DNA from: Velocimicrobium porci
Lineage (GTDB): Bacteria > Bacillota > Clostridia > Lachnospirales > Lachnospiraceae
Direction: 5' to 3'
Length of the DNA: 64,000 bases
NCBI RefSeq assembly: GCF_009696045.1
Contig: NZ_VUMT01000013.1
Span: forward strand, 14,816-78,815
Of the stretch, positions 6,560-12,989 are shown in pieces. Numbering within the stretch: the first letter of the stretch is position 1; every line of letters starts with the position of its first letter. The notes beneath the pieces were generated by a model. That model saw only the letters and a program-made list of their open reading frames with translations. It ran no database searches and had not been told where the DNA came from. Made by a program: the position numbers and the translations under genes.

Positions 6560-6673
6560 TTAGCCTTGTCTTTGTTTGTGTCTTGGGTTTTCGCAGATTA
6601 CTCTGACGCTTCCTTTTCTTTTAATGACTTTGCATTTTTCGCAAATCGGTTTTACTGATGATCTTACCTTCAT
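6560..6673 (-). CDS. rpmJ: 50S ribosomal protein L36 (not in the ORF track, found by manual translation)
   Basis: Reverse-strand translation gives [37 protein letters not shown] followed by TAA. The RBS is AAAGGAGAG, 7 nt upstream of the ATG. Confidence 0.9.
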
Positions 6674-6801
6674 TACAATCTCTCCTTTCGCAAAAGTCCA
6701 CTTGCTATTTTAACATAAGATTTTACAAATTGCAAGCACTTTTTTTATTCTTTTTTTCATTTTCCACACTATAATTAATTTACAGATTTTTGTATCTTCT
6801 G

Positions 6802-7530
6802 TTAAATATTATTGAATTTATATCTGCTGCCTACCATATATTGTCGTCCGATAAAAACCGGGTTATCAGCTTCATCTCCAAAATAAACATTCATATAAAA
6901 AAGCGGTTCTCCGATAACAACATCTAAATCCCTTGCATGATGCGATTCCGCTTTAACAATCTCAAGTGTACTTTTTACAGACTTGCAGGCATGTAAGCCA
7001 TGCTTTTCAAGTACTTCAAATAAAGAAGTGTTTTCTAATGTTTCATCTTGCAGAAATTTGAATTTTTCAAACACATAAAAATTATTTTCCAACATGATTG
7101 GCGTATCATCTGCCGTAAGAACCCGTTTGATATATAATATTTTTGTTTTTTCATCGACATGAAAAAAGTTCTGCTCATCCAATCTTGCAAAACTAATTTG
7201 ATAGTCTAACACTCTCGCTCCAGGCTTCATACCATTTTGTCTGCATGCTTTTGAAAAACTTAGCACTTCATTCGAACGTTCTATTTTTCGAAGTAATTTC
7301 GGTTTACAGACAAACGTTCCTTTACCTTGCTTTTTAATTAAATACCCTTCATTACACAATTCGTCCACTGCCCGTCTGACCGTAATCCGACTCACGCCAT
7401 AATCGGCACTTAACTCTGGTTCGGTCGGTATTTTGTCATCATAATTATACTTCCCATTCTCAATTGAATATTTAATATCTTCCATTAATTGTTGATATAA
7501 TGGCGTCAAAGACGTTTCATTTAATTTCAT
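6802..7530 (-). CDS. GntR/HutC-family transcriptional regulator (winged HTH plus UTRA effector domain)
   Basis: The N-terminal GntR HTH reads IPTEPELSADYGVSRITVRRAVDELCNEGYLIKKQGKGTFV. The probable start is the ATG at 7530 with a GAGGTG RBS. Confidence 0.8.
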   Translation of the reverse strand: MKLNETSLTPLYQQLMEDIKYSIENGKYNYDDKIPTEPELSADYGVSRITVRRAVDELCNEGYLIKKQGKGTFVCKPKLLRKIERSNEVLSFSKACRQNGMKPGARVLDYQISFARLDEQNFFHVDEKTKILYIKRVLTADDTPIMLENNFYVFEKFKFLQDETLENTSLFEVLEKHGLHACKSVKSTLEIVKAESHHARDLDVVIGEPLFYMNVYFGDEADNPVFIGRQYMVGSRYKFNNI

Positions 7531-7907
7531 AATCCACCTCATATCCCTCGTACTTTCTATCATAATCTCATATAGACATAATATCCCTACACTGCTTTTT
7601 TGTACTATATCGTCAGTTTTAACATTGAAGCTAGTATAAATCGCCCTCCTAAAACTTCAACTAAAATTCCTTTTTCTAACAAAATCTGAACTTATTATGA
7701 TATTTCTTCCATCTGTATTTTTTCTTTTTTAATCATTTTCCTACTCCTTTTCCTATTATTTTAATTTACTACAATAAGATACCATTCAAACCTAAAAGTT
7801 ACAACCATTTCCGACAATTCCAACATAAATGGAAAACAAAAAACAAGCGTTGCAATATCAACCGTTTCCTTTGTATTGCCGAAATGACTGCATGCAATTA
7901 ACAGACT

Positions 7908-8261
7908 TTGCTTTCCCAATTACCAAATCAAACACCTAACAAACTATTTCAAGACATAAAAGACAAGCAAATTGTCGTAAGGGTCCAATTTACTCAAATC
8001 ACAGGAATACACAATATTACTGCTGCCTTCTATTCGCCAAACGGAAAATTATATGAATACAGCGAAAATATACTATTTCAACCTGAGGAACAGGAAAATG
8101 TATTTTTATGGTTTTGGGTTGATATGCAGGAGATAAAAGCAAATGTTTCTTATGAAGGTACCTGGTTTATTCGGTTATTTATAAATGGGGAACATATATT
8201 GGAAGATACTTTTTCTATAAAAAAAGAAATTGAAATCACACCAATCCAAAGTTTTATTTAA
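7908..8261 (+). CDS. hypothetical protein (117 aa, TTG start, no clear RBS)
   Basis: Only an ORF. It precedes the giant lysine-rich gene on the same strand. Confidence 0.3.
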   Translation: MLSQLPNQTPNKLFQDIKDKQIVVRVQFTQITGIHNITAAFYSPNGKLYEYSENILFQPEEQENVFLWFWVDMQEIKANVSYEGTWFIRLFINGEHILEDTFSIKKEIEITPIQSFI

Positions 8262-8317
8262 ATCGATTGGAATTTATTTTTACAAAACAAAAAAGCGTAG
8301 AAAGGTAAAAAAATACT

Positions 8318-11068
8318 ATGAGTAACAAAATCTCTGGCAAAAGCCATTCGCATTCAAGCTATCATGCAGCAACACCAAGCAGAAATACTGCTAAATCCTC
8401 TCCTTCGAAAACCTCAAGCTCTTCAAGTAAAAACAGCACTAGCACTTCATCAAAAGCAACAACTAGACCAGCAGCTAAAACGGTAACTAAGCCTGCCACT
8501 AAACCAGTAACTAAAACGACAACTAAATCAAATACTTCAACTTCGTCCTCAAAAAAAACGGATAAGAAAATTAGTTCTAATGAAGTTAAAAAAAACTCCA
8601 CAGACTCTTCAAAAAAGGATGTAAAATCGAAAGAAAAAAATATAGCGAAAAATTTCATTAGTTTAAACTCTAAACAATCAGCAAAACCCAAAAAGCCACA
8701 TAAACCTGTACCCACTTCAAATCAAAAAATAGAAACAGGTCTTCCATTTCCTACAATACCAATTGCTCAATGTGATTTTTACATAAAGGCCATAAAGGAA
8801 TGGTATAAAACTCATGCTGAAGCTCCTGCAAATGGAAATTATACAGGTTTTACTTCGGAAAATTTAAACTCTTATGACAGCTTTATTCCAATTAATAATC
8901 CAATACAAAAGGAGCCCCCGAACCAATTAAATTCCAGCCCAGTCAATTTCCATCCGATAAACCCTGGCATGACCAAACCAAATCTCTCCAACAATACTTC
9001 ATCAAAAAAAAATGAACCTTCCAAAAATATTATTATTTCAAGCAAAGATGTTGTAGTATTAAAGACAAACACGGGTAATAAAACTCCTGTCTCAAAAAAA
9101 CAGGAGAAAAAGAAAGTATTTTTTAATTCAAAAAAAGAGGAAGTACAGTGGACACCAAAAAAAGAGAAGGTAAATAAAAGTGTCCTAACAACAAAAGCAA
9201 CCATCAAACAAGTTATTTCAAAAACAAATGTTAAAAACAAGCACGCTTCTATCTCCCAGCTTCCTATTGAAAAGAATAAGCAAACAAATTCCTTAAGTTC
9301 TTGGAATAAAAATAACCTTTTTAATCATATTCGTTCAGAAAAGAAAAAAGCACTTAATCCTCTTTCTTCTCTTATCCCTGAAAAACAGACGATAACAGAA
9401 ATTATAAATAAGCAAGAGGCAAAGCGAACCTTGTCTTTCGCAAAGACTTTAATCGCTTCCTTAAATCAGGCAACAAAACGTAAATCACACACAACAGGCT
9501 ACTACGCTTCTTTAGAAAAGGAAAAGCAACTCCAAGAACAGGAAAAGCAAAAGAGAAAAAAGGCAGAACTAGCAGAAAAAACAAAAAAAGAAACCAATAA
9601 GAAACTCGAAACAAAGCAAAATTATGATAAAAAACACCACATTGATTTTGGAAAAATAAACGCTACGATTCATTATCGTGGCACAGGAAGTTCTAATAAG
9701 TCCAGAAATCAAACTATTAGGAAACCATCTTTAACATATTCCGGATTAATACACCCTTTGGAGTATCATAAGCCAAACCTAACAAAACTATCACAGCCTT
9801 CTAAAGCAAAACGTTCCTCTTCTAGTAAGCATAAAGGAAAGAAAAAGACAAAGAATACGAAAAGTTCAGAACAAAAAAACGATGGATTTATAGGAAAATT
9901 CTGTAGCAATATAAAGAGTGGACTACACACACTAAAGAACAAGGTAAATCATGCTTATCATGATACAAAATCCAAAGTAACAAATTGGTTTATGAGCAGG
10001 AAAGTAAAACAAAAAACAAAAACAAAAAAATCCAAGACTCATAAAAAAAATAACACTTCCAAAAACCATTCACATCCACATGCGATAAAAGTAAAAGTTA
10101 AAAACTCGCAAAAAAAAGCACACTCCGCAAAACCTGGCAAGCATCATACTATTGCAAAAAAACCGACAGTCCATTCAACTCACTCCTCGCAGTCAAAAGC
10201 AAATGCAAAAAAAGCAACAAAAAACGGTCATGTCATAGATAACGTCCAAACTGCTTTAGACTTCGCCGGTATAGTGTTTGATGGAGCAGATTTAGTAAAT
10301 GCCGGAATTTATTATGTAAGAGGAAAGAAACTGGATGCAACCATATCCGCATTAGGTTCGCTCCCATTTGTAGGAGAAACTGCAAAAGCTGGAAAATATG
10401 CCATAAAACTTTCCAAAGGTGCAAAACTGGCGAAAGGTACAAAGTATGTTGCAAAAGTTTCAAAAACAGAGAAAGACGTCGTACATATTTACAAAATAGG
10501 AAAAGACGGAAAAAAACTCCTCAAATATAAAGGAACCATCCAAGCAATTGGAAAAGGTAGCAACCGGCTAAAAAATAGTGAAAAGGTCTTGAAAAAGGCA
10601 ACGGAAAAGGGGTATCATGTTGTAAGAAATGCCCCAAAGGTAAAAAAAGCAACAAAAGGAACAAAGAAAGCAACTTCCTTGGAAAAGGGACTAAAGGGTG
10701 TTCGTGGTTCGAAAGTAAAAAATAGTAAGAAGGTAGCAAAAAAGCATAAGAGTGGTAGTGGCTCTGTAATAAAAAATATACAATCAAAATCTCCACAGCA
10801 ATTAATTGAAGATGGATGGGAAGACATTACAAATCCTAAAATGGCAGCAAACACAAACTCAAGAGAATTTTATGACCCAAAGTCAGGTTTAAAAATAAGA
10901 TTTGATAAAGGGGTTGATGGTGCAAATGGATTTGAAGCAGTAGACCATTATCATGTAATGAATCCAAATTATACAAACAAAAAAGTTGATTATTATTTGG
11001 ATATAGATGGAAAACCTGTCGGAAAAGGGTCAAAGGCATCTCATATCGTAATTAAAGGAGAAGAATAA
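8318..11068 (+). CDS. giant lysine/serine/threonine-rich protein with a pre-toxin-TG-like motif and a C-terminal toxin-like module (polymorphic-toxin candidate)
   Basis: The ORF is 916 aa and uninterrupted, which is notable in very AT-rich DNA. The N-terminal ~130 aa are S/T/K low complexity, with no signal peptide and no TM segment. Near residue 640 the motif ALDFAGIVFDGADLVNAGIYYVRGKKLDATISALGSLPFVGETAKAGKYA resembles the PT-TG pre-toxin domain. KKATKG-type basic repeats follow, then a compact ~85-aa C-terminal module (GLKIRFDKGVDGANGFEAVDHYHVMNPNYTNKKVDYYLDIDGKPVGKGSKASHIVIKG). Confidence 0.6.
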   Translation: MSNKISGKSHSHSSYHAATPSRNTAKSSPSKTSSSSSKNSTSTSSKATTRPAAKTVTKPATKPVTKTTTKSNTSTSSSKKTDKKISSNEVKKNSTDSSKKDVKSKEKNIAKNFISLNSKQSAKPKKPHKPVPTSNQKIETGLPFPTIPIAQCDFYIKAIKEWYKTHAEAPANGNYTGFTSENLNSYDSFIPINNPIQKEPPNQLNSSPVNFHPINPGMTKPNLSNNTSSKKNEPSKNIIISSKDVVVLKTNTGNKTPVSKKQEKKKVFFNSKKEEVQWTPKKEKVNKSVLTTKATIKQVISKTNVKNKHASISQLPIEKNKQTNSLSSWNKNNLFNHIRSEKKKALNPLSSLIPEKQTITEIINKQEAKRTLSFAKTLIASLNQATKRKSHTTGYYASLEKEKQLQEQEKQKRKKAELAEKTKKETNKKLETKQNYDKKHHIDFGKINATIHYRGTGSSNKSRNQTIRKPSLTYSGLIHPLEYHKPNLTKLSQPSKAKRSSSSKHKGKKKTKNTKSSEQKNDGFIGKFCSNIKSGLHTLKNKVNHAYHDTKSKVTNWFMSRKVKQKTKTKKSKTHKKNNTSKNHSHPHAIKVKVKNSQKKAHSAKPGKHHTIAKKPTVHSTHSSQSKANAKKATKNGHVIDNVQTALDFAGIVFDGADLVNAGIYYVRGKKLDATISALGSLPFVGETAKAGKYAIKLSKGAKLAKGTKYVAKVSKTEKDVVHIYKIGKDGKKLLKYKGTIQAIGKGSNRLKNSEKVLKKATEKGYHVVRNAPKVKKATKGTKKATSLEKGLKGVRGSKVKNSKKVAKKHKSGSGSVIKNIQSKSPQQLIEDGWEDITNPKMAANTNSREFYDPKSGLKIRFDKGVDGANGFEAVDHYHVMNPNYTNKKVDYYLDIDGKPVGKGSKASHIVIKGEE

Positions 11069-11069
11069 T

Positions 11070-11399
11070 ATGTTAGTAACAGAATTAGTAAAGAAAATAA
11101 ATTTTAATGATAGCTGTGTAAATGAGTTGGTTTATGCAAATGGAACAGTGATACTGAATATTGATTTATGCATGTGGAAGCAAAATGAATATCAAGATGG
11201 TGACCCCGAATTAAAGGAAGTTATTTTAAAATTTTTGAATTCAACAAATTATAATTGGGATTCAGAAAAAAGAGAAGATGAGATTGATTATGATTCAATT
11301 GTTGATGTTACATGTGAAGAAAGTACTGTAAAAATAGTATTAGAAGATGAAGTCGTTTCTATATTGACATTTGAGTGTAGTGAGGTTCAAATTGATTAA
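11070..11399 (+). CDS. small acidic protein, candidate immunity protein for the upstream toxin-like gene
   Basis: It starts 1 bp after the upstream stop, with a GGAGAAG RBS inside the upstream gene's 3' end. It is 109 aa and D/E-rich. Confidence 0.45.
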   Translation: MLVTELVKKINFNDSCVNELVYANGTVILNIDLCMWKQNEYQDGDPELKEVILKFLNSTNYNWDSEKREDEIDYDSIVDVTCEESTVKIVLEDEVVSILTFECSEVQID

Positions 11400-11484
11400 A
11401 TTATATCATCCATGAACAAATAATGCTTTGGTGTTAATTGTAGCTATACAATAATTTATGTTGAACATAACTCCTTTAAAATAA

Positions 11485-11537
11485 CTGTATCACCTATCTG
11501 TCCATGAAATGAATGATATGTAGGTGATACAGTTTTT
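11485..11537 (+). terminator. putative terminator after the toxin/immunity-like pair
   Basis: A perfect 12-bp stem, CTGTATCACCTA(N24)TAGGTGATACAG, is followed by TTTTT. The loop is long, so confidence is only moderate. Confidence 0.4.
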
Positions 11538-11721
11538 AGTCTATTAGCAATTAGAGAAAACAGTGTTGAAAATTATACGATTACTTGCTCAAATATTATC
11601 CAGCAGAATTGTGTCTTGGTATCATATTGTCGATTACTGATTATAAGTTCCGTATCCTCTTTTAGGAGAACTTTTTGAAAGTAATGCCCTTTATCCATGA
11701 AATAACATGCCAGTTTCATTT

Positions 11722-12096
11722 TCATGATATGTTCGGCATCTTCTCTATTGAAAGTGCTATCTGATTTCGGTGGTGTGCTTCGGCAATAGCATATTCAATT
11801 ATTTGACTGTGTGTATTCGAAGAATGTTGTTCCTGTAACATATCCAGTAGTCCGTCATAAACAGCAATTGTCATGGATTTATATGCAGATGGAACAAACT
11901 GGTCTGGATGTTGGAGTGCCAGATACAAATTTTCTGCCTTGCGTAATTTGTTCTTCTTTTTATACAGAGCCAGTAACATAATAATCAATATGCAGTCTGT
12001 TTTACAATATTTCTTTCCAAATTCATTTTCTATCTTTTTCAGAGCCATCTCCCAAAGAATTTCGTTGATTTGAATTTTAATATCCTTTTTTCTCAT
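11722..12096 (-). CDS. hypothetical protein (124 aa)
   Basis: Only an ORF. It is the last coding sequence in the insertion. Confidence 0.35.
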   Translation of the reverse strand: MRKKDIKIQINEILWEMALKKIENEFGKKYCKTDCILIIMLLALYKKKNKLRKAENLYLALQHPDQFVPSAYKSMTIAVYDGLLDMLQEQHSSNTHSQIIEYAIAEAHHRNQIALSIEKMPNIS

Positions 12097-12770
12097 ATTG
12101 TTCTGTCTCCTTGAAGGTTTATTTGACCTCTGAGGAGCAGAAGATATATGAGTATGTGAAAAAGGTAGATTGAATAGTTAGCACAAATATCAATTTCCGT
12201 TTATATTCTGCCCCATGAAAGACCACAGAATATAAGCCGAGATGAGTATTCTAAAATGAAAGTATATTTTTTATTATGAGCGGTAGAATTATATAAAATT
12301 TCCGTTTGAAAAGCGGTAATTTCGACTCTAATATTGCTTCAAAAGGTGGTAAATCAAATACAGATTTTTGCCAGAAAAACGGTATCGGATTCTTTTGATT
12401 TTGCTATCAAAGATATTTCAGGATCCCTTTTTCCTTTAGAAATCTAGCCATTTTACAAGATTCTTTCACAATTAAGTTTTACTTCAAGATGAATTATGAC
12501 ATTCACAGACAGGTTACTGACAATTCGCAGGGGTCTCATGAATACAGACAACTTAGACAATGATGGATAATCCCCAGTAATCTTAAACTATCATCCGTTG
12601 ATACCATCGAAATTCTCCAATCTTAATCCGCACATCCTAACATCACACCTCTGTTTTGATTCATTCTGATTTGTAACTACACAGAACCAAGTAAATATGA
12701 TGGAAAAGTTTCCTATAAAGCAAAAAAAAGCCCCTGCCATTCCAGCAAGAGCCATTCTAAATCTCTATTC

Positions 12771-12989
12771 TTATTTATCTCTCCAAATAATTCTACCTTT
12801 TGTAAGATCATAAGGAGAAAGTTCTAATGTAACCTTATCTCCTGGTAAAATACGAATAAAGTTCATTCTTAATTTACCACTGATGTGAGCCAATACTATA
12901 TGTCCATTCTCCAATTCCACACGAAACATTGCGTTTGGCAATTTTTCAACAACAGTTCCTTCGATTTCAACTACATCTGCTTTTGACAT
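12771..12989 (-). CDS. infA: translation initiation factor IF-1
   Basis: The 72-aa ORF reads [53 protein letters not shown]. Confidence 0.95.

Follow-up and report, generated by a model that had tools for sequence, protein, structure and literature searches.

The stretch of Velocimicrobium porci DNA analysed here (64,000 nucleotides of assembly GCF_009696045.1, contig NZ_VUMT01000013.1, positions 14,816 to 78,815 of the forward strand; referred to below as the window) carries a pair of adjacent open reading frames (ORFs) that very probably encode a polymorphic toxin with a PT7-like DNase tip and its cognate PIM7-like immunity protein in a Lachnospiraceae chromosome. That these ORFs form a toxin/immunity pair had been proposed in an original prediction made from the DNA letters, and this proposal is borne out: the C-terminal module of the large protein recurs on many delivery heads, and the small acidic partner is conserved in all eight contexts compared. 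The pair is laid out as follows.

8318–11068, + strand: toxin ORF, complete, 916 aa, ATG start, stop codon included
11054–11069, + strand: coupling junction, with the ribosome-binding site (AAAGGAGAAG) inside the toxin 3' end, then the stop codon, then a 1-nt spacer
11070–11399, + strand: putative PIM7-like immunity ORF, 109 aa, ATG start, isoelectric point (pI) 4.05

Both ORFs have exactly the limits given in the original prediction, and the two motifs that it singled out lie where it had placed them (the segment ALDFAGIV... begins at residue 646, and DHYH occupies residues 876–879). The large ORF is real. At the local composition a stop codon has a probability of 0.072 per codon, or one expected every ~14 codons; 916 open codons would arise by chance with P ~2e-30, and the longest open run in shuffled sequence (n=2000) was 209 codons, which rules out a chance ORF. 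As the ORF is intact over 916 codons, selection was keeping it open until a very recent time. The toxin stop TAA (11066–11068) is separated by one base from the ATG of the 109-aa ORF, and a GGAG precedes this ATG by 9 nt within the 3' end of the toxin gene, an arrangement that we read as translational coupling. The predicted disparity in charge also holds: the 916-aa protein has a basic pI of 10.2 and 14–29% lysine in most 100-residue blocks, whereas the 109-aa protein has 25 Asp and Glu residues against 8 Lys and Arg.

The assignment of the pair rests principally on the C-terminal end of the large protein.

10748–11065, + strand: putative PT7-like DNase toxin module, residues 811–916, ~105 residues
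10904–10906 (D863), 10943–10954 (D876-H877-Y878-H879) and 11042–11044 (H909), + strand: putative catalytic residues of the module

Residues 636–916 served as the homology query; in a word-indexed search with the whole protein, low-complexity words had swamped the result. This query matched 89 protein clusters. The last ~100 residues are found also on LXG, WXG100, RHS, PT-HINT, true PT-TG, peptidoglycan-binding, phage MuF and extracellular contractile injection system (eCIS) DUF4157 heads, and the same C-terminal module is thus carried by at least eight unrelated N-terminal head types; the original prediction had suggested looking for the module on LXG or RHS heads, and it occurs on both. The family is spread across gut Clostridia, Paenibacillus, Parageobacillus and Bacillus. 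In eight of eight toxin-module loci the acidic downstream partner is kept, with the identities of toxin and partner declining together. Neither the toxin tips (89 clusters) nor the immunity proteins (58 clusters) have a Pfam or NCBIfam match, and the same two databases returned no PT-TG, HNH, barnase, EndoU or GIY-YIG match for the full protein and four sub-segments of it. A short form, of 191 aa, is encoded within L008:3354-4916 and consists of the pre-toxin module and toxin only, followed by the immunity gene; its start overlaps a DUF4417 gene by one base, the last of that gene's stop codon, and ~20 proteins of ~190 aa with such a short form exist.

The likeness of the DHYH region to barnase or HNH motifs that had been noted earlier proved mistaken, and the module is a structural relative of the PT7 DNase. 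PT7, which occurs on LXG proteins, belongs to a set of nine toxin domains discovered by Nachmias et al. (bioRxiv 10.1101/2021.10.19.465003); it is a Mg-dependent, EDTA-sensitive, non-specific endo-DNase whose fold was new at publication, and its alanine mutants at D37, H47 and H73 lose toxicity (Table S11 of the same work). The toxin module described here shares its three-dimensional fold with the solved PT7 structure (PDB 8owu chain C). For comparison at the level of sequence, that of PT7 was recovered from the mutagenesis primers in the supplement of Nachmias et al. and from the PT7 copy on a B. cereus plasmid. Alignment of the toxin family to this sequence by hhalign covered 68 collinear columns (P=1.9e-4, probability 47%) and paired PT7 D37, H47 and H73 with D863, H877 and H909, all three of which are invariant across 35 homologues. 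The relationship is invisible to plain HMMER: phmmer and hmmsearch of the toxin sequence and profile against PDB sequences gave no match at E<=10, PT7 included, and the pairwise phmmer score of toxin module against PT7 is ~9 bits. The module is therefore a distant branch of the PT7 fold. A Foldseek search of the PDB returned weak matches to CdiA-CT (5t87) only. We infer from fold and active site that residues 811–916 are a PT7 relative at these two levels and, by analogy, probably a DNase. The suggestion of a new toxin class is not supported, as module and partner are both related to the published PT7/PIM7, which are together in PDB 8owu.

The 109-aa protein, encoded directly downstream of the toxin, has the same fold as PIM7 (PDB 8owu chain E). 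Its invariant D14-S15 pair lies between helix 3–9 and strand 16–23 of the model, in the alpha1-betaA loop. PIM7 blocks the PT7 active site via Asp17 (Nachmias et al., bioRxiv 10.1101/2021.10.19.465003), and in the local hhalign register D14 falls opposite PIM7 D17, in an alignment that is not significant (P=0.32); a search of PDB sequences with the immunity profile did not recover PIM7. These comparisons suggest that the protein is a PIM7-like immunity protein, and a mechanism for the pair can be proposed on the model of its structural relatives. Residues 811–916 would act as a Mg2+-dependent non-specific endo-DNase that degrades the chromosome in the recipient cell and kills it, the putative metal and catalytic site being formed by D863, the D876-H877-x-H879 motif and H909. 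The coupled 109-aa protein would most likely plug this active site and so protect the producer, its invariant Asp14 acting as Asp17 does in PIM7.

Toxin tip and immunity gene also share a boundary that is visible in the DNA.

10749–11526, + strand: mobile toxin-immunity cassette, 96.4% nucleotide identity to the cassette ending an RHS toxin (locus L002)

The likeness to this locus does not extend beyond these 778 bp; it starts exactly at the toxin-module boundary and ends ~130 bp past the immunity gene, and an LXG locus has 85% nucleotide identity across nearly the same span. Toxin tip and immunity gene thus move as one ~780-bp unit, and the cassette has been exchanged recently between different delivery proteins. 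In polymorphic toxins the toxin tip and immunity gene are known to move as a unit (Zhang et al. 2012, Biol Direct 7:18, PMC3482391), and three of the hallmarks set out in that work are found here, namely several unrelated heads, a co-varying downstream immunity gene and cassette recombination. The 778-bp cassette now sits behind a pre-toxin module, lysine-rich linkers and a species-unique 640-residue head.

Two of the compared loci carry further toxin-related genes. Downstream of the RHS toxin with the 96%-identical cassette, nine small ORFs run on the same strand (L002:1174-6054), one of them with a PTS_2-RNA (KptA/Tpt1-like) domain; this run may be an array of orphan toxin/immunity cassettes. 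The Parageobacillus thermoglucosidasius locus L007 (CP063414.1, 397342-406448) encodes three tandem WXG-like/PT-TG toxins whose tips differ, being Tox-GHH, the PT7-like module and a bacterial RNase A-like domain; a small candidate immunity gene follows each of them, and the last such gene is CdiI_2. Also in this locus are a fragment of Tox-GHH, which has a small ORF of its own downstream, and a GAD-like/Tdi1 gene.

Between the head of the 916-aa protein and its toxin tip lie two segments of different character.

10253–10417, + strand: conserved putative pre-toxin module, residues 646–700, resembling PT-TG and not a member of PF14449
10418–10747, + strand: lysine-rich (histone-H1-like) linker, residues 701–810

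The pre-toxin module (~60 residues; consensus ..IPG.D...DLA.IPVDL.RGDY.SAGL..LG.IP.VGE) is common to ~25 other carriers of the same toxin module. Its identification as PT-TG (PF14449) in the original prediction was not borne out. There is no PF14449 match, even at E<=10, in the full protein, in residues 636–773 or in the other carriers of the motif, whereas true PT-TG proteins scored 25–53 bits in the same runs, the gathering score being 23.5 bits. When a 25-sequence alignment of the motif was compared with five PF14449 segments by hhalign, the likeness was weak (P=0.0028, probability 11%, 32 columns), with RG(D/K) of the motif opposite the TG of PT-TG. Both modules occupy the same position, immediately N-terminal to linker and toxin, and by this position residues 646–700 are best regarded as a pre-toxin module. 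The Parageobacillus homologues, which bear the same toxin module, appear as PF14449-only proteins in the architecture tables of Becerra Soto et al. 2026 (PMC13483458), and one of them, P0065 (WP_256833970.1), is listed by name in a table of that paper. The linker is species-specific, being present otherwise only in P0001, a truncated product from another assembly of the species. At 10475–10630 (residues ~720–770) the linker contains a stretch, VVHIYKIGKDGKKLLKYKGTIQAIGKGSNRL, superficially like the GIY-(10-11 residues)-YIG...R signature; a GIY-YIG reading of 'VVHIYKIGKDGKKLLKYKGT' was rejected, as it has no Pfam or NCBIfam profile support and the stretch is missing from other toxin carriers.

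The remainder of the protein is its head.

8318–10237, + strand: orphan K/S/T-rich N-terminal region, residues 1–640, with no signal peptide, transmembrane segment or known domain

A phmmer search of residues 1–640 against 1.84 billion representative proteins gave a single match, the same-species 325-aa fragment P0090, and searches of Pfam, NCBIfam, PHROGs, PADLOC and PDB sequences were all empty. Composition is K/S/T-rich with short imperfect repeats. The 916-aa protein has no match to LXG (PF04740) or WXG100 (PF06013), and none of its 19-residue windows reaches transmembrane-grade hydrophobicity (Kyte-Doolittle maximum 1.19, at the pre-toxin motif), so that it has no Sec signal or membrane anchor. 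The original prediction was therefore right that the head contains no known delivery domain, on the evidence of these five collections and of hydropathy, and among the large ORFs of the window there are no secretion-system genes, components of type VII secretion (T7SS) included. We picture the head as a scaffold that evolves fast, is disordered over much of its length and may bind DNA or the anionic cell wall. Since a long PT7 toxin with a wall-binding head exists (WP_168455230.1, described below), a wall- or DNA-binding role of the lysine-rich region is a reasonable guess.

The pair looks less pristine than had been assumed, as other strains carry a frameshift and what is probably an insertion sequence (IS) in the toxin gene.

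9225–9227, + strand: frameshift site, a 1-bp deletion (AAAAACAAATG to AAAAACAATG) in sister-strain contigs L010-L013
9996–9997, + strand: break site in other assemblies of the species, at about codon 560

The deletion frameshifts the toxin gene near codon 303 and results in the 325-aa product P0090. This allele is present in 11 Logan contigs from several runs, 99.4% identical to the window, all of which end at 9995. An ENA contig, L001, matches the window from 9998 onward only and is preceded there by the end of an IS3-like element: on the reverse strand of L001:1-119 are a ribosome-binding site and the start of an ORF (MATQYTEEFK) resembling the IS3 OrfA-like ORF of L014 (L014:37-414), and a 23-nt stretch is common to L001 and the sequence upstream of that ORF. 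These features point to an IS3-family insertion in the toxin gene of other strains. P0001 was rejected as a genuine 264-aa protein, since the IS junction close to the end of contig L001 cuts it short. Strains differ in the head by seven non-synonymous and two synonymous changes. From these alleles, the toxin gene appears to be undergoing inactivation in other strains while the cassette and immunity gene persist; the head is real, or was until very recently, yet poorly constrained. An exact 41-mer from the toxin gene is absent from GTDB genomes, so the species itself is unrepresented there.

The pair lies within a lineage-specific island of limited size.

6756–12770: lineage-specific island, ~6 kb, between rpmJ and infA
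6560–6673, – strand: rpmJ, island flank
6802–7563, – strand: GntR/UTRA regulator (Pfam), in the island
7908–8261: carbohydrate-binding module (CBM) gene remnant, in the island upstream of the toxin, 117 codons left
11722–12096, – strand: 124-aa ORF, in the island just outside the swapped cassette
12771–12989, – strand: infA, island flank

The cargo thus comprises the regulator, the CBM gene remnant, toxin, immunity gene and 124-aa ORF, in surroundings of ribosomal-protein, rpoA, map and infA genes. RpoA has 98% identity to its counterpart in a MAG labelled 'Acetivibrio sp.' and 84–95% to those of many Lachnospiraceae, in keeping with a Lachnospiraceae-type Clostridium. In related Lachnospiraceae infA and rpmJ are adjacent, with nothing between them in most, and the nearest relative, L014, carries other cargo at the same site (L014:1-2250), namely an IS3-like ORF, part of a GHKL-ATPase and an ORF in which several segments are hydrophobic; the island that holds the pair is therefore small and variable. 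Sister-strain contigs L010-L013 contain 702 bp missing from the window (junction 7918–7921, with short AATT microhomologies flanking the deletion). In those contigs this DNA comprises the promoter and initial ~132 codons of a 249-aa AMPK1_CBM (PF16561, glycogen-binding-like; CBM48-like) protein encoded 57 nt upstream of the toxin. PHROGs and PADLOC returned nothing for the toxin, the immunity protein or the CBM protein. The 124-aa ORF is conserved in the same-species contig L001 and has no Pfam or PADLOC match and a single, marginal PHROGs match (E 0.009). Elsewhere in the window, the ribosomal protein L17 ORF (3077–3613, – strand) encodes 178 aa, with the 97-position Pfam L17 profile spread over residues 16–177, which implies a ~60–65-residue insertion within the domain.

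Two negative results weigh against the polymorphic-toxin reading: the protein lacks the recognisable N-terminal trafficking or secretion domain of a polymorphic toxin, whether judged by Pfam, NCBIfam, PHROGs, PADLOC or hydropathy, and the profile search with Pfam found no PT-TG match, which the original prediction had named as grounds for abandoning a toxin, although the toxin reading rests on other evidence. It is possible, if somewhat doubtful, that the locus is a decaying relic, in which the cassette and immunity gene are retained to protect the cell from the toxins of its kin or as a store for recombination, the 916-aa protein has ceased to be exported or to serve as a weapon, and the lysine-rich head is drifting sequence and not a delivery device; this account differs from ours only on whether the full-length protein works. 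It draws on the frameshift at codon ~303 in 11 sister-strain contigs, on the end of those contigs at 9995 and the resumption of the ENA contig at 9998 after the IS3-like end, on the excess of non-synonymous changes in the head (seven against two), on the 5' deletion of the adjacent upstream gene in the window, and on a head that has neither homologue nor signal peptide in a window where no secretion genes were seen. Against decay, the ORF is intact over 916 codons in the window, with its catalytic residues preserved and the immunity gene coupled to it, and the cassette (96% nucleotide identity) was swapped in recently onto a head with a conserved pre-toxin module, as active polymorphic toxins do. 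On an opposite and unlikely view, residues 1–810 would be a new kind of delivery device, a polycationic carrier of a PT7-type DNase into neighbours that is either independent of secretion systems or tethered to cell wall or DNA; the recent cassette swap would then show the head in active use as a polymorphic-toxin chassis. The orphan head may accordingly be either a new carrier, to which we assign a low probability, or a drifting remnant.

Other explanations concern the activity of the pair or its place of action. It is distinctly unlikely that the C-terminal module is a BECR-type (Barnase-EndoU-ColicinE5/D-RelE) RNase and not a DNase, a reading close to the earlier barnase idea. We consider it very unlikely that the pair acts within the producer, as a toxin-antitoxin or abortive-infection-type module in which a DNA-binding polycationic DNase is checked by an acidic antitoxin. 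The protein does lack an export signal or trafficking domain, its H1-like tracts of lysine-rich sequence could attach to the producer's own DNA, and the locus stands in a small variable island beside a transcription regulator; however, all other occurrences of the module are on recognised extracellular heads (T7SS LXG/WXG100, RHS, MuF, eCIS), the island genes have no PADLOC or PHROGs match beyond the marginal one of the 124-aa ORF, and toxin-then-immunity gene order with a pre-toxin module is typical of polymorphic toxins and not of type II toxin-antitoxin pairs. We give almost no credence to the reading of the protein as a structural component of the surface or cell wall, with a C-terminus that is conserved but not toxic and a downstream gene that has nothing to do with it. 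Its low-complexity S/T/K-rich composition is that of many surface proteins, but the protein lacks a signal peptide or anchor, its head is without homologues and hence without a family of structural proteins, and the C-terminus is common only to polymorphic toxins, always with the same partner gene. The homology network of the C-terminus and the structural relationship to PT7/PIM7 likewise contradict it.

On the polymorphic-toxin reading, the locus offers a function-level assignment, as PT7-type DNase and PIM7-type immunity with catalytic residues that can be tested, for 89 toxin and 58 immunity clusters previously without annotation, a family that spans the T7SS, RHS, phage MuF and eCIS weapons found in Clostridia of the gut and in Bacilli. 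The cassette, which has moved with hardly any change (96% DNA identity) between an RHS protein and one with an orphan head, may be a snapshot of the origin of a new carrier or of toxin decay with immunity retained. Should the head be functional, Gram-positive interbacterial toxins would have a new mode of delivery; if it is not, the locus would be an ordinary, slightly eroded polymorphic-toxin island.

In its order of head, pre-toxin module, swappable tip and immunity gene, the locus resembles the T7SS LXG/WXG100 and RHS toxins of Firmicutes (Zhang et al. 2012, PMC3482391). LXG, WXG100 and RHS proteins bear this toxin module too, with the cassette boundary visible in the DNA. Unlike these toxins, the 916-aa protein has no LXG, WXG100, RHS, PT-HINT, MuF or DUF4157 domain, and no T7SS genes were seen among the large ORFs of the window. 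The pre-toxin module is comparable to PT-TG (PF14449; Becerra Soto et al. 2026, mSystems, PMC13483458) in that it is short, probably forms a loop, has invariant Gly, Asp and Arg and lies between the head and the toxin, but differs in that its sequence (..IPVDL.RGDY.SAGL..LG.IP.VGE..) earns no Pfam score and its profile-profile likeness to PT-TG is weak; true PT-TG proteins of Parageobacillus nonetheless bear the same toxin module.

With the PT7/PIM7 pair of Bacillus cereus (PDB 8owu) the likeness extends to the fold of both proteins, to an immunity gene directly downstream and to the catalytic D37, H47 and H73, matched by D863, H877 and H909. The differences are an identity of just ~22–25% that leaves HMMER blind to the relationship, a module that is ~25 residues longer here and has additional helical sequence at its N-terminal end, two insertions (4 and ~6 residues) between catalytic motifs, and membership of a large family of its own without Pfam or NCBIfam annotation. 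The nearest parallel in overall design is WP_168455230.1, encoded on a Bacillus cereus plasmid (NZ_CP042875.1), a 962-aa protein in which choline-binding repeats are followed by PT-TG and PT7, with its immunity gene 15 nt downstream. Its pre-toxin module is a true PF14449 PT-TG, whereas the one here fails PF14449, and its head has recognisable cell-wall (choline-)binding repeats, whereas that of the V. porci protein is orphan, polycationic and of low complexity. Both proteins exceed 900 aa and combine a head that is not of T7SS type with a pre-toxin module, a linker, a PT7-type tip and a downstream immunity gene.

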